DNA of 64,000 bases from Escherichia coli. GTDB lineage: Bacteria > Pseudomonadota > Gammaproteobacteria > Enterobacterales > Enterobacteriaceae. The stretch lies in the NCBI RefSeq assembly GCF_003790525.1, contig NZ_CP033635.1; one strand, written 5' to 3'. Below the pieces are notes generated by a model. That model was not told the DNA's origin. It saw nothing but the letters and a program-made list of their open reading frames with translations, and made no database searches. The translations under genes and the position numbers were made by a program. Positions 2,147 through 40,485 of the stretch are shown one piece after another; position 1 is the stretch's first letter, and each line of letters starts with the position of its first letter.

Positions 2147-3685
2147 TTATTGCAAATCTGCGTCTTCAAAGCTGAAGCCGGTGTCTGGCATGATCCAAAA
2201 ACCGGTCAGGTTTTTACTGTGTGCCGACACCAGTTTTTCTACCACCAGCGGGATCCACGGCGACTCTTGCCAGATGATATCCTGCGCCGCCTTATATAAA
2301 CGGGTCTTTTCCGCCGGATCATTAGTTTTTAGTGCCTGAGCCAGGAAGTCATCCACCTGTTTATTGCTGTAAAACGCGGTATTAAACAGCGTTGGTGGCC
2401 AGTTTTGCGAGGCAAACAGCGGCGATAGTGCCCAGTCAGCTTCGCCGGTTGAAGCCGACCAGCCAGTGTAGAACATCCGCACGCCGCTCTCTTTTTGCCC
2501 TTTACCTTCGACTTCTGCCGCCCGCTGTCCGGCATCCATCGCAGTCACCTGGGCTTTAATCCCGACCTGCGCTAACTGCTGCTGGGTAAATTGCAGCACT
2601 TTCTGCGCGGTGCTGTGGTTATGTGACGACCACAGCGTGGTACTGAAACCGTTGGGATATCCCGCCTCTTTCAGTAATTCGCGCGCTTTCACTGGATCGT
2701 AAGGCCACGGTTTATAACTTTGCGCATAGGCGATACTCGGCGGTACCACACCAGTAGCTGGCGTTGCATAGCCCGCGAAGGCCACTTTCACCAGCGCCGG
2801 GCGGTTAATGGCGTAATTCAGCGCCTCACGGACCTTCGGGTTATCGAACGGCTTTTGCGTCACGTTCATACTGATATAACGCTGCATAATTGACGGACTG
2901 GCCATCAACTCGATATTTTTGTTTTTCTCCAGCAATGCGGCCTGCTCGTAAGGAATGGGGAAAGCAAACTGCGCTTCACCGGTTTGTAGCATTGCCGCGC
3001 GGGTGTTGTTATCCGCAACCGGACGCCAGGTTATGCTGTCCAGTTTGGGCAATCCTGGCTGCCAGTAACCCGCGAATTTTTTCACCTTCACAAAATCGGT
3101 CTGATTCCAGGTATCCAGTTCATACGGCCCGGTTCCCACCGGATGAAAACCAATATCCTTGCCATATTTTTCCAGCGCTGCCGGCGAAATCATCGCGGTC
3201 GCCGGATGGGCAAGAATATTAATAAACGCTGAGAACGGCTGTTTGAGGGTAATCTTTACCGTTGTTGGATCGATCGCTTCCGTTTTGGCAATATTCTTAT
3301 ACAGGTTGTAGCGTTTAAGATGATTCGCCGGATCGCTGGCCCGGTCCAGATTCGCTTTTACCGCCGCTGCGTTGAAGTCGGTTCCATCCTGGAATTTAAT
3401 TCCTTCCCGCAGTTTCACGGTGTAAGTAAGGCCGTCATCGGAAACGGTATAACTCTCCGCCAGCACGTTTTTCAGTTTCATCTCTTTATCCAGACCGAAC
3501 AGCCCCTGGTAAAACGATTTCGCTACGGCCTGAGATAACGTGTCATTCGCGTCATATGGATCGAGCGTGGTGAAGTTCGATCCTACCGCCACCACCACAT
3601 CTTTGGCAGCGAATGCACAAGATGCCATCAACGCTGTCGCAATGCCCAGCGCCACTAACCCACTACGGTGTACAGCTCTTGCCAT
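2147..3685 (-). CDS. gsiB: glutathione-binding periplasmic protein GsiB
   Basis: Family-5 substrate-binding protein. Start placed at ATG 3685, giving 512 aa beginning [26 protein letters not shown] (signal peptide). The 601-aa track ORF extends 89 codons into gsiA and is not credible. Confidence 0.93.
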
Positions 3686-20040: not shown

Positions 20041-20098
20041 CTGTATGTAATGCAATCATCCCTCAAGGATCGACGGGATTAGCAAGTCAGGAGGTCTT

Positions 20099-20227
20099 AT
20101 GAATGAGTTCAAGAGGTGTATGCGCGTGTTTAGTCATTCTCCCTTTAAAGTACGGTTAATGCTGCTCTCTATGTTGTGCGATATGGTCAACAACAAACCG
20201 CAGCAAGATAAACCTTCCGATAAATAG
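20099..20227 (+). CDS. mntS: small protein MntS (within the RybA transcript)
   Basis: 42-codon ORF MNEFKRCMRVFSHSPFKVRLMLLSMLCDMVNNKPQQDKPSDK preceded by AGGAGG. Recognised as MntS. Below the ORF-track cutoff. Confidence 0.88.
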   Translation: MNEFKRCMRVFSHSPFKVRLMLLSMLCDMVNNKPQQDKPSDK

Positions 20228-20498
20228 CGGCGTCGCGGTACGCCGCTTCACTCCTGCTTTTATGCAGGCACAACGCGTTTTGGTCTGAAAAACCCCACTT
20301 TTTGTCGGATTTGCAATCCCCTTCGCGAAAGATTTGTTCGTCAGTAGTTGACCTGAACGGCGGCTCGCTCTATCTTCTTGCAGCCCTGCGTATATTGCGG
20401 CTCGCGGATGCGGACCCCTTTCCCCTCTTCACGCACTCTTGCAGGTATTGACCCTTGACGCCAGGGTAAGCACATGGCGTTTGTTACGATAGTGGCAT

Positions 20499-22082
20499 AT
20501 GAATTTAACCCTCAAAGACTCGCTTGTTACCCGTAGCCGGGTATTTAGCCCGTGGACTGCGTTCTACTTTTTACAGTCGCTATTAATTAACCTCGGCTTA
20601 GGTTATCCCTTCAGTTTGCTCTACACCGCTGCGTTTACGGCTATTTTGCTTTTGCTATGGCGAACATTGCCTCGCGTACAAAAAGTTCTGGTCGGTGTCA
20701 GTTCGCTGGTGGCGGCTTGTTATTTCCCTTTTGCTCAGGCCTACGGCGCGCCTAATTTCAATACATTGCTGGCATTGCACTCCACCAATATGGAAGAGTC
20801 GACCGAAATCCTGACGATTTTTCCGTGGTACAGCTACCTGGTCGGCTTATTTATTTTTGCGCTCGGCGTAATAGCAATCAGGCGAAAAAAAGAGAATGAA
20901 AAAGCGCGCTGGAATACCTTCGACAGCCTGTGTCTGGTATTCAGTGTGGCGACATTTTTTGTTGCTCCCGTGCAAAACCTGGCCTGGGGCGGCGTATTTA
21001 AACTGAAAGATACTGGCTATCCGGTATTTCGTTTTGCTAAGGATGTCATCGTCAATAATAACGAGGTGATCGAAGAGCAAGAACGGATGGCAAAACTTTC
21101 CGGAATGAAAGATACCTGGACGGTCACTGCCGTTAAGCCGAAGTATCAGACCTATGTGGTGGTGATCGGTGAAAGCGCGCGTCGCGATGCCCTCGGTGCC
21201 TTTGGCGGTCACTGGGACAATACCCCGTTTGCCAGCAGCGTTAACGGTTTGATATTTGCTGACTACATTGCCGCCAGTGGCTCCACGCAGAAATCGCTTG
21301 GCTTAACGCTCAATCGCGTTGTCGATGGCAAACCACAGTTTCAGGATAACTTTGTCACCCTGGCAAATCGCGCGGGCTTCCAGACCTGGTGGTTTTCCAA
21401 CCAGGGCCAAATCGGCGAATACGATACCGCCATCGCCAGCATCGCCAAACGTGCAGATGAAGTGTACTTCCTGAAAGAAGGTAATTTTGAAGCAGATAAA
21501 AACACGAAAGACGAAGCGTTACTGGATATGACCGCTCAAGTGCTGGCGCAAGAGCACTCGCAACCGCAGCTGATTGTTCTACATCTGATGGGCTCGCATC
21601 CGCAGGCCTGCGACAGGACACAAGGCAAATACGAAACCTTTGTGCAATCAAAAGAAACGTCGTGCTATCTCTATACCATGACGCAAACGGACGATTTACT
21701 GCGCAAACTGTACGATCAGTTACGCAACAGCGGCAGCAGCTTCTCGCTGGTTTACTTTTCTGACCACGGTCTGGCCTTTAAAGAGCGCGGCAAAGACGTG
21801 CAATACCTTGCCCATGATGATAAGTATCAGCAAAATTTCCAGGTGCCTTTTATGGTCATTTCCAGCGACGATAAAGCGCATCGGGTGATTAAAGCCCGCC
21901 GCTCAGCCAATGACTTCTTAGGTTTTTTCTCCCAGTGGACGGGAATTAAAGCGAAGGAAATTAACATCAAATACCCGTTTATATCTGAGAAGAAAGCCGG
22001 GCCGATATACATCACCAACTTCCAGTTACAGAAGGTAGATTACAACCATCTCGGAACCGATATTTTCGACCCGAAACCTTAA
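20499..22082 (+). CDS. opgE: phosphoethanolamine transferase OpgE (YbiP)
   Basis: 527 aa with an N-terminal multi-TM region and a sulfatase/EptA-like periplasmic domain. Confidence 0.92.
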   Translation: MNLTLKDSLVTRSRVFSPWTAFYFLQSLLINLGLGYPFSLLYTAAFTAILLLLWRTLPRVQKVLVGVSSLVAACYFPFAQAYGAPNFNTLLALHSTNMEESTEILTIFPWYSYLVGLFIFALGVIAIRRKKENEKARWNTFDSLCLVFSVATFFVAPVQNLAWGGVFKLKDTGYPVFRFAKDVIVNNNEVIEEQERMAKLSGMKDTWTVTAVKPKYQTYVVVIGESARRDALGAFGGHWDNTPFASSVNGLIFADYIAASGSTQKSLGLTLNRVVDGKPQFQDNFVTLANRAGFQTWWFSNQGQIGEYDTAIASIAKRADEVYFLKEGNFEADKNTKDEALLDMTAQVLAQEHSQPQLIVLHLMGSHPQACDRTQGKYETFVQSKETSCYLYTMTQTDDLLRKLYDQLRNSGSSFSLVYFSDHGLAFKERGKDVQYLAHDDKYQQNFQVPFMVISSDDKAHRVIKARRSANDFLGFFSQWTGIKAKEINIKYPFISEKKAGPIYITNFQLQKVDYNHLGTDIFDPKP

Positions 22083-35503: not shown

Positions 35504-36418
35504 ATGCACTCAATAAAAAAAGTAACCATGCTCCTGGGGTGCCTCGCCCTCACCTGCTCGATAGCATTTCAGGCGAGTGCAACTGAAAAATTCAAGGTCA
35601 TTACAACATTTACCATCATCGCAGATATGGCCAAAAACGTGGCTGGAGATGCTGCAGAAGTCTCATCCATAACCAGGCCCGGTGCAGAAATTCATGAGTA
35701 TCAGCCTACCCCTGGCGATATTAAACGTGCGCAGGGGGCACAACTGATTCTCGCCAACGGTATGAATCTGGAATTGTGGTTCCAGCGCTTTTACCAGCAT
35801 CTCAGTGGGGTTCCAGAAGTGATTGTCTCTTCGGGTGTGACGCCAGTAGGGATCACCGAAGGCCCCTACGAGGGAAAACCTAACCCTCATGCCTGGATGT
35901 CGCCAGATAATGCTTTGATTTACGTCGATAATATTCGTGATGCGTTGATAAAATACGATCCGGCAAATGCAAAAACATACCAACGTAATGCCGATACTTA
36001 TAAAGCCAAGATTACCCAAACCCTTGCCCCCCTGCGTAAGCAGATTGCTGAACTCCCTGAGAATAAAAGATGGATGGTCACCAGTGAAGGGGCTTTTTCT
36101 TATCTCGCACGCGATTTGGGGCTAAAAGAGCTTTATCTGTGGCCGATAAATGCCGATCAACAAGGAACACCCCAGCAGGTACGTAAAGTGGTTGATATAG
36201 TGAAGAAAAATAATATCCCAGCGGTATTTAGTGAGAGTACGGTTTCCGATAAACCAGCGCGTCAGGTTGCGCGTGAAACCGGCGCACACTACGGCGGTGT
36301 GCTCTATGTCGATTCCCTGAGCACAGAAAACGGCCCGGTACCTACGTATATCGACCTTCTGAAGGTTACTACCAGTACGCTGGTGCAGGGAATTAAAGCC
36401 GGGAAAAGGGAGAAGTAA
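35504..36418 (+). CDS. sitA: Mn/Fe ABC transporter substrate-binding protein SitA (YfeA family)
   Basis: 304 aa with a signal peptide. KFKVITTFTIIADMAKNVAGD...PGAEIHEYQPTP...NPHAWMSP...TSEGAFSYLA is the cluster A-I metal SBP signature, recognised as SitA. Confidence 0.88.
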   Translation: MHSIKKVTMLLGCLALTCSIAFQASATEKFKVITTFTIIADMAKNVAGDAAEVSSITRPGAEIHEYQPTPGDIKRAQGAQLILANGMNLELWFQRFYQHLSGVPEVIVSSGVTPVGITEGPYEGKPNPHAWMSPDNALIYVDNIRDALIKYDPANAKTYQRNADTYKAKITQTLAPLRKQIAELPENKRWMVTSEGAFSYLARDLGLKELYLWPINADQQGTPQQVRKVVDIVKKNNIPAVFSESTVSDKPARQVARETGAHYGGVLYVDSLSTENGPVPTYIDLLKVTTSTLVQGIKAGKREK

Positions 36419-36555
36419 TGATGCAATCTGCGGGTATTGTCGTTAATGGCGTTACTGTCACCTGGCGAAACGGGCAGAAAGCACTGCGCGATGCATCCTT
36501 CACAGTACCAGGCGGATCTATTGCCGCTCTGCTTGGGGTAAACGGTTCCGGTGAA
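36418..36555 (+). pseudogene. sitB: sitB, 5' fragment (truncated at about codon 46)
   Basis: TAATG overlap with sitA. MMQSAGIVVNGVTVTWRNGQKALRDASFTVPGGSIAALLGVNGSG matches SitB up to the Walker A GxxGxG, then diverges. sitC and sitD are absent. Confidence 0.8.
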
Positions 36556-36756
36556 ATCGTCTTGACACGTTTCTGGGCTCGTCATCAGCGGTTGTTGCGA
36601 ATGATCGCCGCCCTGCGATGGTTGATTTATTTTATTGCGCCCCGGCGTCTGCCTTGCCAGGTACCGGAGGCGGGCTCTGAAGGACTGAGTAGGGTGAGCG
36701 CGTCAGGCCGCGAAGTACTGACACGGGAGTTTGTGGCAGGCAGTGAAGTCCTGACC

Positions 36757-37300
36757 AGGGTAAGGGAGGCGCTGACGTGCAGGTCCTGACTGTCAGCCAG
36801 GCGCATGGTGACTGACTTTCTCAATAACCCGCTGTCAGGCGCTCAACGCCCGACAGCAGGCCATGGCCCGGTGTGCAAAGACCTGACGGCAGGTGTTGTG
36901 TCACCCGGAGAAGGTAAATCCCTCAAGAGGCAGCAGCTCAGCCAGTCGGTCCTCAGGCCACTCCGGCAGGCGCGTCAGTACGTCCGTCAGCCAGGCATGT
37001 GGCTCCAGACCATTACGCTTTGCTGTTTCCAGAAGACTCATTATCTGTGCCGCGCGTTTGCCGGCCATCAGCGAGCCTGCGAATAACCATGCCTTTCGCC
37101 CCAGCGTGACCGGGCGGATGGCTCGTTCGCAGATATTGTTGTCCGGTGGCACAGAGCCATCATCCAGAAAACGGCACAGCTCATCAGGTCGTTTCAGGAT
37201 ATAGCTGATAGCCTTATGCAATGGACTGTCTGGCGGACCGCCTGCTCCTGCTCTTGACGGTTTTTTGCCTTGTATATCAGGTTATAGACGAGAAGATTGT
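36757..37300 (-). mobile_element. IS66-family remnant (TnpC C-terminal part and end)
   Basis: Reverse frame reads ...KAISYILKRPDELCRFLDDGSVPPDNNICERAIRPVTLGRKAWLFAGS...LLPLEGFTFSG*. A GTAAGGGAGGCG-type terminus sits at ~36757. Boundaries are approximate. Confidence 0.65.
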
Positions 37301-37694
37301 CGTCTTCGTGGTTTCCGTCAGGAAAAGAGAATGCTCAAAAGTGTATAGTAAGGCGGTCAAACGCATTCGCTGAAATAAGATGTGTCACTTCAGCTTTGCG
37401 TTAACACGACTATTTTTCATCACTCAAGCGGTAGTCCCGGTGACTCACACGTATACGAGTCACCGCTTCAGATTTGAGTATCCGAATTTAAATCAGGGAC
37501 ACAATGGAAGAAGCGAACACTTTCGCATCCTCTTCCTGCAATTCGCAGACTGTCACTCTGCGTCCAGTTCCCTCTTTCCTCAGCAGGTACCAACGCCAGG
37601 CTCCCGACAAAGGTTGACCTGAAACGACCAAATACACAGGAAACAAAATACTGTCAGACAGAACGAGGCGTGCTATACATCACGCCTCAATGCT

Positions 37695-37952
37695 TCAGTG
37701 GCTGATTTTTTTCAGCTGTTCTTCACTCAATCCCGTGATTTTCATGATGGTCTGAAGCCCCATTCCTTCAGCCAACATATTACGCGCCGTTTCCAGTTTG
37801 CCTTCCAGTTGTCCTTCGAGTCGCCCTTCGGCACGGCCTTCCATTCTGCCTTCCATTCTGCCTTCTAGCTTACCGCGCTCCATACCCTGGGCAATACCGC
37901 GCTCAAATCCCTTGACTTCCCCTTCCTGCTTCAGTTGTTCAGCCAGTGTCAT
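37695..37952 (-). CDS. possible in-frame internal ORF (85 aa, RpnS-like C-terminal small protein)
   Basis: Internal ATG at 37952-37950 is preceded by GAGGG with a 7-nt spacer. It would give MTLAEQLKQEGEVKGFERG...SEEQLKKISH. Inferred by analogy only. Confidence 0.35.
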   Translation of the reverse strand: MTLAEQLKQEGEVKGFERGIAQGMERGKLEGRMEGRMEGRAEGRLEGQLEGKLETARNMLAEGMGLQTIMKITGLSEEQLKKISH

Positions 37953-38684
37953 TATGTTGCCCTCATGCTGTGGCAGCCGCTCCGCCAGCGTCTGCAAAAA
38001 CCTTACCGTCACATGTTCACTGCCGTTCAGCAGATAGTGGAACAGAGCCTTCGCCAGCTCTTCATTCAGTGAAGTCTGTATCAGCTGAACCAGCCTGTCC
38101 ATCTGCAGCATGATGTCGCGGCTGCGGCTGTGTTTCATCAGCAGCGTCAGTGCCCCCATTCGGCGGTGTTGCATTATCTCATCGTCATCCAGTACCGTCA
38201 CGTCCACCAGGTGGAACGGTCTGGTGTAGATTTTAGCAGCAAGTTCCGGATTTCTGAAACACTCCAGCCAGTTCATGCTGTACGGGTACGGGCTCCGCTC
38301 ACCGTGGTAGAATAACAGCGGGATCACCAGCGGCAGCTCATGGTGCTGTTCAAAGTGACGCTGCATCGCCGCCACCGCATATCTGAGCATCCTGAACGCC
38401 ATAAACGCGTTTTCCGTACTCTGGTGTTCCGCGAGGCAATAAATATACCCCTCCTCACCGCTGACGGTCTTCATGCTGAACAGCGCATCGCACGCATACT
38501 GTTTCAGATCCTGGTCCACAAAGGTACAGGGCTCCAGCCGCAGCGTCGACAGATCACACAACTGCCGGTATTCCGCCGGAAGATGCAGTTCAACAAAATC
38601 ACGGGCCACCTCTGCTGAGGCCATAAACGCCCTGAAGGCGGCATCATGCGGCGTGGGCGTATTTTTCTCTTTCCTGCTGCTCAC
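37695..38684 (-). CDS. Rpn-family (YhgA-like) PD-(D/E)XK recombination-promoting nuclease
   Basis: 329 aa. The N-terminus TPHDAAFRAFMASAEVARDFVELHLP and the ...DALFSMK...IYCLAEHQS nuclease core are typical of RpnA-E. The C-terminus carries an EG-rich repeat region. Confidence 0.85.
   Translation of the reverse strand: MSSRKEKNTPTPHDAAFRAFMASAEVARDFVELHLPAEYRQLCDLSTLRLEPCTFVDQDLKQYACDALFSMKTVSGEEGYIYCLAEHQSTENAFMAFRMLRYAVAAMQRHFEQHHELPLVIPLLFYHGERSPYPYSMNWLECFRNPELAAKIYTRPFHLVDVTVLDDDEIMQHRRMGALTLLMKHSRSRDIMLQMDRLVQLIQTSLNEELAKALFHYLLNGSEHVTVRFLQTLAERLPQHEGNIMTLAEQLKQEGEVKGFERGIAQGMERGKLEGRMEGRMEGRAEGRLEGQLEGKLETARNMLAEGMGLQTIMKITGLSEEQLKKISH
37800..37871 (-). repeat. six tandem 12-nt coding repeats in the rpn 3' region
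   Basis: Units NCCTTCNNNNNN: GCCTTCCAGTTG, TCCTTCGAGTCG, CCCTTCGGCACG, GCCTTCCATTCT, GCCTTCCATTCT, GCCTTCTAGCTT. They encode (K/R/Q)(L/M/A)EG tetrapeptide repeats. Confidence 0.85.
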
Positions 38685-38918
38685 TGTTTATCTCTTCTGA
38701 ACCAGGTAACATTAACAGAACATGTTTCAGGATATCCGCGCAGTGCGGAACATTACGGCTCACCACTGTGACGGCGGATCATCGCCACCCAGTATCCGAC
38801 AGACCCCTTACTTTGTTCGTAAACATCCTTCCTGCCCCCCTGAATCTCCAGACAACCAATATCACTTAAATAAGTGATAGTCTTAATACTAGTTTTTAGA
38901 CTAGTCATTGGAGAACAG

Positions 38919-39284
38919 ATGATTGATGTCTTAGGGCCGGAGAAACGCAGACGGCGTACCACACAGGAAAAGATCGCAATTGTTCAGCAGAGTTTTGAAC
39001 CGGGAATGACGGTCTCCCTTGTAGCCCGGCAACACGGTGTGGCAGCCAGCCAGCTATTTCTCTGGCGCAAGCAATACCAGGAGGGAAGTCTTACTGCTGT
39101 GGCCGCAGGAGAACAGGTCGTTCCTGCCTCTGAACTTGCTGCTGCCATGAAGCAGATTAAAGAACTCCAGCGCCTGCTCGGCAAAAAAACGATGGAAAAT
39201 GAACTCCTCAAAGAAGCCGTTGAATATGGACGGGCAAAAAAGTGGATAGCGCACGCGCCCTTATTGCCCGGGGATGGGGAGTAA
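38919..39284 (+). CDS. insC: IS2 transposase OrfA (InsC)
   Basis: [41 protein letters not shown]..., 121 aa. The slippery AAAAAAG is at 39236-39242. Confidence 0.93.
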
Positions 39285-40147
39285 GCTTAGTCAGCCGTTG
39301 TCTCCGGGTGTCGCGTGCGCAGTTGCACGTCATTCTCAGACGAACCGATGACTGGATGGATGGCCGCCGCAGTCGTCACACTGATGATACGGATGTGCTT
39401 CTCCGTATACACCATGTTATCGGAGAGCTGCCCACGTATGGTTATCGTCGGGTATGGGCGCTGCTTCGCAGACAGGCAGAACTTGATGGTATGCCTGCGA
39501 TCAATGCCAAACGTGTTTACCGGATCATGCGCCAGAATGCGCTGTTGCTTGAGCGAAAACCTGCTGTACCGCCATCGAAACGGGCACATACAGGCAGAGT
39601 GGCTGTGAAAGAAAGTAATCAGCGATGGTGCTCTGACGGGTTCGAGTTCCGCTGTGATAACGGAGAAAAACTGCGAGTCACGTTCGCGCTGGACTGCTGT
39701 GACCGTGAGGCACTGCACTGGGCGGTCACTACGGGCGGCTTCAACAGTGAAACAGTACAGGACGTCATGCCAGGAGCGGTGGAACGCCGCTTCGGCAACG
39801 ATCTTCCGGCGTCTCCAGTAGAGTGGCTGACGGATAATGGTTCATGCTACCGGGCTAATGAAACACGGCAGTTTGCCCGGATGTTGGGGCTTGAACCGAA
39901 GAGCACGGCGGTGCGGAGTCCGGAGAGTAACGGCATAGCAGAGAGCTTCGTGAAAACGATAAAGCGTGACTACATCAGTATCATGCCTAAACCAGACGGG
40001 TTAACGGCAGCAAAGAACCTTGCAGAGGCGTTCGAGCATTATAACGAATGGCATCCGCATAGTGCACTGGGTTATCGCTCGCCACGGGAATATCTGCGGC
40101 AGCAGGCCAGTAATGGGTTAAGTGATAACAGGTGTCTGGAAATATAG
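39242..40147 (+). CDS. insD: IS2 transposase OrfB (InsD; made as an OrfAB fusion by -1 frameshift)
   Basis: 301-aa ORF with a DDE integrase-core domain (…WCSDGFEF…TDNGSCY…NGIAESF…). Confidence 0.93.
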
Positions 40148-40158
40148 GGGCAAATCCA

Positions 40159-40293
40159 CCTGAATCTGAGGCAGCACCTGGCACGGCTGGGACGGAAGTC
40201 GCTGTCGTTTTCAAAATCGGTGGAGCTGCATGACAAAGTCATCAGGCATTATCTGAACATAAAACACTATCAATAAGTTGGAGTCATTACCGT
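40159..40293 (+). mobile_element. IS1 remnant (last ~135 bp including the terminal inverted repeat)
   Basis: CCTGAATCTGAGGCAGCACCTGGCACGGCTGGGACGGAAGTCGCTGTCG...CATAAAACACTATCAATAAGTTGGAGTCATTACC is the 3' end of IS1. It abuts the IS2 right end directly. Confidence 0.88.
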
Positions 40294-40485
40294 GTTCCCG
40301 ACAGACGACTCGGTGAAAAAAGTGGTGTGGCTGGCAATCCAGTCTGCGTCCCAGAAATGGACGATGCCGTTGAAGGACTGGCGAATGGCAATGAGCCGCT
40401 TTATTATCGAGTTCGGTGACCGCCTGGACGGTCACTTCTGAGAAAAGGCATTTACACAGAATCCTAAACAGGCTCATGTACAGCG
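40294..40485 (+). mobile_element. IS256-family remnant (transposase C-terminus plus end)
   Basis: Reads VFPTDDSVKKVVWLAIQSASQKWTMPLKDWRMAMSRFIIEFGDRLDGHF* (stop at 40439-40441), the conserved mutator-type transposase tail. It starts immediately after the IS1 end. Confidence 0.75.

Follow-up and report, generated by a model that had tools for sequence, protein, structure and literature searches.

An island-borne rpn gene of Escherichia coli with the layout of an RpnL/RpnS gene-within-gene toxin-antitoxin system, next to IS2

Rpn proteins are nucleases of bacteria. In Escherichia coli K-12, all five rpn genes are also translated from an internal start codon and so give RpnS, a short protein that corresponds to the C-terminal part; the same holds for an rpn gene of C. 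difficile (Zhong et al. 2023, PMC10400941). RpnS binds and blocks its cognate full-length nuclease (PMC10400941). Here, we describe an rpn gene found in a 64,000-nucleotide (nt) stretch of the E. coli contig NZ_CP033635.1, which will be hereafter referred to as the window. The gene is island-borne and lies on the minus strand. Its full-length open reading frame (ORF) of 329 amino acids (aa) is named rpnL, and an in-frame internal ORF of 85 aa, which is a candidate antitoxin gene, is named rpnS. A first-pass annotation, made from the letters alone, had stated that the K-12 Rpn proteins are toxic nucleases held in check by inhibitors from internal starts, with a contribution to phage defence. 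This literature is real and had been accurately described (PMC10400941, PMC5350276). The features of the gene are the following.

37695-38684, minus strand: rpnL, the full-length Rpn-family PD-(D/E)XK nuclease ORF, 329 aa, GTG start
38643-38645, minus strand: codon of D14 (PHD motif; equals RpnA D11), an invariant column with D in 126 of 126 homologs that have the N-terminus
38487-38489, minus strand: codon of the catalytic D66 (equals RpnA D63), D in 134 of 135 homologs
38421-38429, minus strand: codons E86-H87-Q88, the E-x-Q of the PD-(D/E)XK core (equal to RpnA E82 and Q84), E and Q in 135 of 135 homologs
37695-37952, minus strand: rpnS, the in-frame internal ORF, 85 aa, candidate antitoxin, whose M245 aligns with RpnA M244
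37960-37964, minus strand: internal Shine-Dalgarno (SD) sequence GAGGG, separated from the ATG by 7 nt and at the same codons in the paralogs
37794-37925, minus strand: 11 four-residue (x-G-x-x) repeats, RpnS residues 10-53, with perfect 12-nt copies at 37836-37865
37704-37823, minus strand: C-terminal helical bundle (HTH_Rpn_C), like RpnA-S 7TH0, seen by phmmer, an AlphaFold2 model, Foldseek and PF27070
38624-38684 in the window, 20096-21025 in comparison locus L001 and 3096-4085 in L003: rpn start-annotation loci

The N-terminal domain of the 329-aa protein belongs to the Rpn nuclease family (PF04754 / TIGR01784 / COG5464), and the curated thresholds are exceeded. The model PF04754 (Transposase_31, YhgA-like) matches residues 11-207 with an E-value of 6.5e-74 and 248.3 bits (cut-off 21), and TIGR01784, the Rpn subfamily model, gives 175.7 bits (cut-off 52.1). 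Residues 83-90 are CLAEHQST, which together with the two profiles bears out the Rpn/YhgA-like PD-(D/E)XK core with LAEHQS that had been noticed in the translation. The alignment shows identities of 49%, 49%, 43% and 47% to K-12 RpnA, RpnB, RpnC and RpnE, respectively. The score against NF007361, the NCBIfam equivalog model of RpnA, is 303.3 bits, below the cut-off of 583. Because of this score and the 49% identity, the protein is a separate paralog and not an ortholog of RpnA. No second rpn or rpnS-like sequence was found in the window. The nuclease domain is under purifying selection, with a ratio of nonsynonymous to synonymous substitution rates (dN/dS) of 0.04-0.09 when compared with two close alleles.

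Profile searches also return the older family labels 'Transposase_31' and 'ISNCY family transposase', and the patchy, island-borne distribution of the gene would suit a transposase or an insertion sequence (IS) element. We give this identity next to no credence. The rpn ORF lacks the terminal inverted repeats and the defined ends of an insertion sequence: flanking terminal inverted repeats were not found, all inverted pairs being short and internal, and homology ends at different points in different genomes. Furthermore, the NCBIfam ISNCY model gives 303.6 against a cut-off of 583, and the published analysis of the family reports no inverted repeats, target duplications or autonomous PD-(D/E)XK transposases (PMC10400941).

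The residues on which the activity of RpnA depends are present. In RpnA, any one of the substitutions D11A, D63A, E82A and Q84K is enough to eliminate its phenotypes in recombination, toxicity and SOS induction (Kingston et al. 2017, PMC5350276). RpnA residues D11, D63, E82, Q84 and R94 correspond to D14, D66, E86, Q88 and R98 in the 329-aa protein, all five being invariant columns in the alignment with K-12 RpnA, RpnB, RpnC and RpnE. Conservation was followed in 135 full-length homologs of 51-100% identity. E86, Q88 and R98 occur in 135 of the 135, D66 in 134, and D14 in each of the 126 that have an N-terminus. The first-pass annotation had named loss of the catalytic residues on alignment among the findings that would refute its reading; D14, D66, E86 and Q88 are all retained.

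The position of the toxin start has been annotated in different ways. RefSeq (PGAP) begins the protein at ATG 38624 in LH50-c, GF60 and CM2, giving 309 aa, and at the GTG in AR_0085, giving 329 aa, while the model in 23CRST013 is two codons longer (MT). The D14 codon lies upstream of 38624 and hence outside the 309-aa model, the product of which would therefore be catalytically dead, judging by RpnA D11A. Between the GTG at 38684 and M21 there is no other start codon, and the GTG is the annotated start also in AR_0085 and in the intact gene of ST131-type chromosomes described below. The 329-aa reading is taken as correct because the shorter one drops D14, no other start intervenes, and the intact cassette has the GTG start. 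The small internal ORF is annotated in none of the RefSeq records examined. The annotation problem to be flagged is thus twofold: a RefSeq model of 309 aa without the Asp that is essential in RpnA, and a small ORF that is left unannotated.

The internal start of rpnS lies at the domain boundary, with its own ribosome-binding site (RBS), and is homologous to that of rpnA. M245 shares an invariant column of the alignment with RpnA M244, a verified internal start, and Met occupies this column in 134 of the 135 homologs. Counted from M244, the RpnA tail has 49 aa, as many as the chain in the crystal structure 7TH0. In rpnA, mutation of K240, E241 and M244 abolishes RpnA-S (Zhong et al. 2023, PMC10400941). 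The sense-strand context of ATG 37952 is CAT GAG GGC AAC ATA ATG, and the GAGGG, the 7-nt spacer and the 85-aa frame are all present as first described. An SD sequence is found at codons -4/-3 in every paralog: it is AAG GAG in rpnA, rpnB and rpnE, GGG GAG in rpnC, GAG GGC in the window gene and GAG GAC (GAGGA) in the ST131-type relative. The residues encoded by these codons vary (K-E, G-E, E-G, E-D) while the purine run persists, and the GAGGG is identical across all close alleles. The pairing energy of the internal SD is -6.1 kcal/mol, which ranks 2 of the 18 in-frame ATGs. The motif itself is only moderately distinctive; homology and conservation are what raise the internal start above chance.

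A conserved Met could also be explained as a structural residue that opens the C-terminal helix, in which case no separate protein would be made from the window paralog. Protein constraint alone could conserve such a Met, and the start signal is statistically unremarkable. However, small proteins were obtained from five K-12 rpn genes and the C. difficile rpn, and mutations of the RBS and the internal start in rpnA and in the C. difficile gene removed the small product (PMC10400941). The purine-rich SD, moreover, is retained at the same codons despite differing residues. A purely structural role of the Met is therefore judged very improbable.

The 'EG-repeat' C-terminal domain of the first-pass annotation could be described precisely as 11 consecutive x-G-x-x tetrads: EGEV KGFE RGIA QGME RGKL EGRM EGRM EGRA EGRL EGQL EGKL. 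Tandem Repeats Finder reports two arrays with a 12-nt period, 37791-37829 and 37836-37865, the second having 2.5 perfect copies. In the published family, the first four-residue repeat begins 8-20 residues past the internal Met; the number of repeats differs from strain to strain, and the repeats determine the pairing specificity (PMC10400941). The window repeats begin at RpnS residue 10, within this range. Tail lengths were counted from the aligned Met, an alignment-based count that replaced a loose regular expression with false anchors. They are 49, 53, 57, 61, 65, 69, 73, 77, 81 or 85 aa (49+4n) in 131 of the 135 homologs, and the C-termini of the remaining 4 are frameshifted or altered. The 85-aa tail of the window (n=9) is of the longest intact class in this set.

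Close alleles vary by whole 12-nt units. Br_112_kylling has (MEGR)x6 where the window has x2, a difference of exactly +48 nt, and 23CRST013 has a shortened array and a 69-aa tail. The tail of AR_0085 has the window length, and its first tetrads, SGRE EGIA LGMA, replace EGEV KGFE RGIA (window 37880-37925). Homology to the commoner relatives, which have about 91% DNA identity in the N-domain, ends at about 37897-37900, that is, 18 codons into the small ORF and in the second tetrad. This break is the hypervariable behaviour described in the literature. Alleles of this single lineage form a natural series that exceeds the length of RpnA-S by 5, 9 or 13 tetrads and could serve for testing the published link between repeat number and toxin-antitoxin specificity. 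Since close alleles differ in unit number, the 12-nt repeats would permit the number of units to change through slippage or unequal recombination.

Three smaller observations concern this region. The SGRE EGIA LGMA segment of AR_0085 has matches in the tails of further rpn clusters (P0002, P0003), which suggests a mosaic exchange within the repeat region. In Br_112_kylling (L002, about 3096-3120), a 1-nt deletion in the A7 run before the stop codon changes the end of the protein from …KKISH to …KKSATEALRRDV; this deletion could be real or could be a homopolymer assembly error. Antisense to the repeat array, at 37798-38037 on the plus strand, there is a 79-aa Pro/Ser-rich ORF, which looks like a by-product of the 12-nt periodicity and not like a gene.

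An AlphaFold2 model made from 56 sequences (mean pLDDT 74.5) is composed of an alpha/beta core, a single unbroken helix of residues 238-305, and two short helices, 310-317 and 321-328. The C-terminal part of this model resembles 7TH0 in being a bundle of three helices, the first of them long. The internal Met would be located near the start of the long helix, which the repeats extend, and a lengthening of the helix by inserted repeats was predicted by Zhong et al. (PMC10400941). The bundle was recognised by phmmer with an E-value of 0.006 over residues 288-327, and current Pfam assigns PF27070 (HTH_Rpn_C) to the exact 329-aa protein. Foldseek aligned the C-terminal 38 columns of the model to 7TH0 with a root mean square deviation (rmsd) of 0.6 Å, a target-normalised template-modelling (TM) score of 0.80 and a probability of 1.00. 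The matches to the N-domain are weak (E-values of at least 0.009) and not decisive, although all are PD-(D/E)XK nucleases: BspD6I subunits, the cap-snatching endonucleases of bunyaviruses and arenaviruses, Cap4 and XPF.

The DNA around the gene has the following features.

38685-38852, minus strand: native upstream remnant, composed of a 68-nt intergenic segment with the degraded SD AAGAGA and the last 100 nt of a superfamily 1 (SF1) helicase-ankyrin gene (38753-38852); collinear with LH50-c to 38852
38753-38852 in the window, 21154-24061 in L001 and 3983-6832 in L024: helicase-ankyrin gene loci
38853-40158, plus strand: IS2, in place of the helicase gene; left junction ambiguous, about 38828-38852
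38173-38258, minus strand: two promoter-like sites inside the gene, candidate rpnS promoters (38258-38230, TTCAGA-17-TAAAAT; 38201-38173, GTGACG-17-GATAAT)
37664-37689, minus strand: candidate terminator-like hairpin, 6 nt past the stop codon, conserved in AR_0085 and poor in its T-run

The gene that originally stood upstream encodes an SF1/UvrD-type helicase with ankyrin repeats, whose C-terminal peptide is shared by the remnant in the window. In LH50-c and GF60 this gene is present and frameshifted; in the window, CM2 and Br_112_kylling it is replaced by IS2. About 110 E. coli genomes have an intact version (949 aa) with 83-84% identity to it. In the ST131-type chromosomes, the order is the helicase gene, a 59-nt gap and an rpn gene with a GTG start behind AAGGGAG, and the N-domain of this rpn is 86% identical to that of the window at the protein level. 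The abrupt loss of homology to AR_0085 at 38684 had raised the possibility of a replaced 5' end and a lost native ATG. This was rejected, as the 168 nt upstream are homologous to the intact GTG-start helicase-rpn cassette. A helicase-ankyrin neighbour of rpn is not mentioned in the Rpn literature examined.

This arrangement brings in the idea that the Rpn protein is the downstream half of a helicase-nuclease defence module, Gabija-like and dependent on the helicase, so that the window copy would be a dead half-system. The two genes form a same-strand tandem with a gap of 59-68 nt and no promoter-like site between them. Two versions of this tandem exist, with 83-84% identity over the helicase gene, and 93 genomes, mostly of the ST131 type, have the junction. 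As 91 of these junctions are at least 99% identical, however, they are largely clonal. The PADLOC models of GajB match the helicase core weakly, and the matches are limited to generic helicase motifs. Plasmid C5 has the helicase gene without rpn, and the only full-length relative of the helicase among the species representatives, in a Nitrosomonas metagenome-assembled genome (48% identity), has no rpn within 4 kb. The window type of rpn occurs without the helicase in AR_0085 and 23CRST013. The K-12 Rpn proteins, furthermore, act alone (PMC10400941). Because helicase and rpn each occur alone, the helicase is probably no obligate functional partner, and we consider the half-system highly unlikely.

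The junction with IS2 could be placed only within limits. The first-pass annotation had seen IS2 next to the gene, and homology to the IS2-free locus indeed ends at 38852, with IS2 extending to 40158. IS2 is 1331 bp long. Counted back from 40158, this length ends at 38828, whereas homology to the IS2-free helicase gene persists to 38852; the helicase gene and the left end of IS2 appear near-identical over about 20 nt (…CTGGAGATTC[A/T]GGGGGG…). The sequence suggests an insertion, or a recombination, at a site that resembles the inverted repeat of IS2. The adjacency had also led to the proposal that Rpn promotes local rearrangement. This proposal found no support: every rearrangement next to the gene stops at an IS element (IS2 in the window, IS21 in EC958), and Rpn activity is not needed for any of them. 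Beyond IS2, the window differs in sequence from CM2 and Br_112_kylling, as these two do from each other, indicating IS-mediated rearrangements. Directly past the right end of IS2, 40159-40441 holds fragments of IS1 and of the C-terminus of an IS256-family transposase, according to the CM2 annotation (ORF 40292-40441).

The two starts of the gene differ in their signals. The GTG at 38684 has the SD AAGAGA, with a pairing energy of -2.9 kcal/mol versus -6.1 for the internal ATG, and the intact ST131-type cassette has AAGGGAG in its place. A consensus scan, which misses weak promoters, was negative for promoter-like sites between helicase and rpn, both for the intact cassette and for the window. 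In the helicase-free AR_0085-type locus, GTGACT-17-TATGAT is located 40-68 nt upstream of rpn. Two sigma-70-like sites, both with an upstream TG (extended -10), lie within the gene, 220-305 nt before the internal ATG. Their number compares with 0.9 expected, and they are retained in AR_0085.

It is possible, at odds well short of even, that the small protein is the only product, with rpnL silent and the locus a decaying orphan rpnS gene, either a relic or a toxin-less antitoxin. IS2 replaces the helicase gene 168 nt upstream, and from IS2 to the GTG there is no promoter-like site of the kind that AR_0085 has. The SD of the GTG is weaker than that of the internal ATG and degraded relative to the intact cassette. 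Two sister copies are broken, in FDAARGOS_1260 by stops and frameshifts (L005 2835-3783) and in EC958 by IS21, which splits the gene (L022 1847-4923), and in K-12 RpnA-L is undetectable while RpnA-S is visible (PMC10400941). Nevertheless, the 329-codon frame is fully intact with all essential residues kept, the consensus scan is blind to weak promoters and to transcription that enters from the end of IS2, and SDs just as weak (-3.5 to -3.8) precede several of the rpn starts in K-12. Silence of rpnL refines the RpnL/RpnS explanation and does not replace it. Judged from these signals, the small protein is probably made, and expression of the full-length toxin is doubtful. We infer that rpnL was formerly read together with the helicase gene and has since lost its transcription, and that rpnS keeps its own signals.

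Based on these features, we assign the locus, with a probability of roughly 0.8, to the gene-within-gene toxin-antitoxin systems that Zhong et al. 2023 described (PMC10400941), with RpnL as toxin and RpnS as antitoxin. The full ORF, from GTG 38684 to 37695, would give RpnL, in which a long helix and then a small bundle of helices are joined to a PD-(D/E)XK DNA endonuclease. Initiation at ATG 37952 behind the GAGGG would give RpnS, an 85-aa copy of the helix and the bundle. By analogy with RpnA, RpnS would pair through the long helix with the identical segment of RpnL and block the nuclease, the number of four-residue repeats, 11 here, determining the specificity of the pairing. In the window copy, the toxin arm is probably under-expressed: IS2 took the helicase gene, the SD decayed from AAGGGAG to AAGAGA, and no promoter-like site is left. 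The 'self-contained defence/addiction gene' of the first-pass annotation thus stands in part. The sequence features of an RpnL/RpnS gene are present, apart from the internal promoter, for which there are candidate sites only, but self-containment is doubtful for the toxin arm, with its upstream gene lost to IS2 and its weak start signal.

Several points weigh against this assignment. By sequence alone, the internal ATG ranks ninth of 72 ATG, GTG and TTG candidates in all frames. For the K-12 genes, an internal promoter is reported, from which a short transcript arises in greater abundance; the internal promoter-like sites of the window gene are absent from the ST131-type rpn (86% identical) and are not conserved in the K-12 paralogs. 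K-12 RpnE, with its motifs intact, can be inactive in toxicity and SOS assays (PMC5350276). Anti-phage activity has been demonstrated for only one plasmid Rpn, RpnP2 (PMC10400941); any role of the window gene in phage defence is put forward tentatively. The assemblies with the exact sequence (>300) are mute on selection after the arrival of IS2, as they are probably clonal. A scan with PADLOC 2.0, which has no Rpn model, gave no relevant defence match.

Two bolder proposals could be joined to the RpnL/RpnS assignment, both rather unlikely. In the first, rpn is normally the distal gene of a helicase-ankyrin/rpn operon, and IS2 has uncoupled the two arms so that the cell makes only RpnS. In the second, the helicase-ankyrin protein is a partner or sensor of this Rpn clade. 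If the first is true, such toxin-silent, antitoxin-only alleles would be a route to disarm Rpn systems without mutation of the ORF.

Comparison with known systems shows where the window gene has diverged. K-12 RpnA (YhgA), the reference member, with both biochemical and structural characterisation (PMC10400941, PMC5350276, PDB 7TH0), has the same two-domain layout, the same essential residues, an aligned Met (244, versus 245 in the window), the same SD codons and a bundle that superposes within 0.6 Å. However, the identity is 49%, and RpnA-S has 49 aa while the window RpnS has 85, its 9 extra tetrads lengthening helix 1. Furthermore, rpnA stands alone at the feoC-bioH core locus, whereas the window rpn is island-borne, has a GTG start and lies downstream of a helicase gene. 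E. coli RpnC, the paralog in which toxin-antitoxin specificity was shown to be set by the number of repeats (PMC10400941), has several x-G-x-x tetrads (KGIE-type) directly after its internal start, in strain-variable number, as in the window gene. It differs by its 43% identity, and the window units are E-G-R/K/Q-hydrophobic in a much longer array. RpnP2 is the only Rpn whose activity against phages has been demonstrated (T-even phages, BASEL #40; PMC10400941). Its gene resembles the window gene in being carried by a mobile element and in having an antitoxin encoded within it. Plasmid rpn genes have about 75% DNA identity to the window N-domain. The tail is 61 aa long in P0017, the 60%-identical homolog cluster with by far the most members, for which a plasmid location is not shown. 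The ST131-type rpn (WP_024192850.1, 313 aa; helicase WP_000686652.1) shares with the window the island type, the helicase-rpn tandem, the GTG start and Met 245. It differs in its intact helicase, its strong SD AAGGGAG, its 69-aa tail (5 extra tetrads versus 9) and the sequence of its bundle.

The exact 329-aa sequence is present in public collections in 329 contigs and 321 index blocks, and the 309-aa call adds 125 contigs, always under the label 'Rpn family recombination-promoting nuclease/putative transposase'. The window tail type is found in six of 5,426 complete E. coli genomes. No follow-up literature on Rpn after 2023 was found beyond the original paper and its commentary. A known system was correctly recognised here in a paralog that is new, and the gene is an ordinary member of its family except for the upstream region removed by IS2. 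Its value is modest: the RpnL/RpnS architecture is recognisable from sequence alone in an island-borne, non-K-12 paralog, and an Rpn clade is recorded directly downstream of a helicase-ankyrin gene.

Downstream of rpn, segment 35504-37373 is a patchwork of truncated cargo. There, sitA is intact, sitB is reduced to its first 147 nt (36418-36564), and fragments of an IS66 transposase (36901-37233) and of a RelE/StbE toxin (37266-37373) follow.

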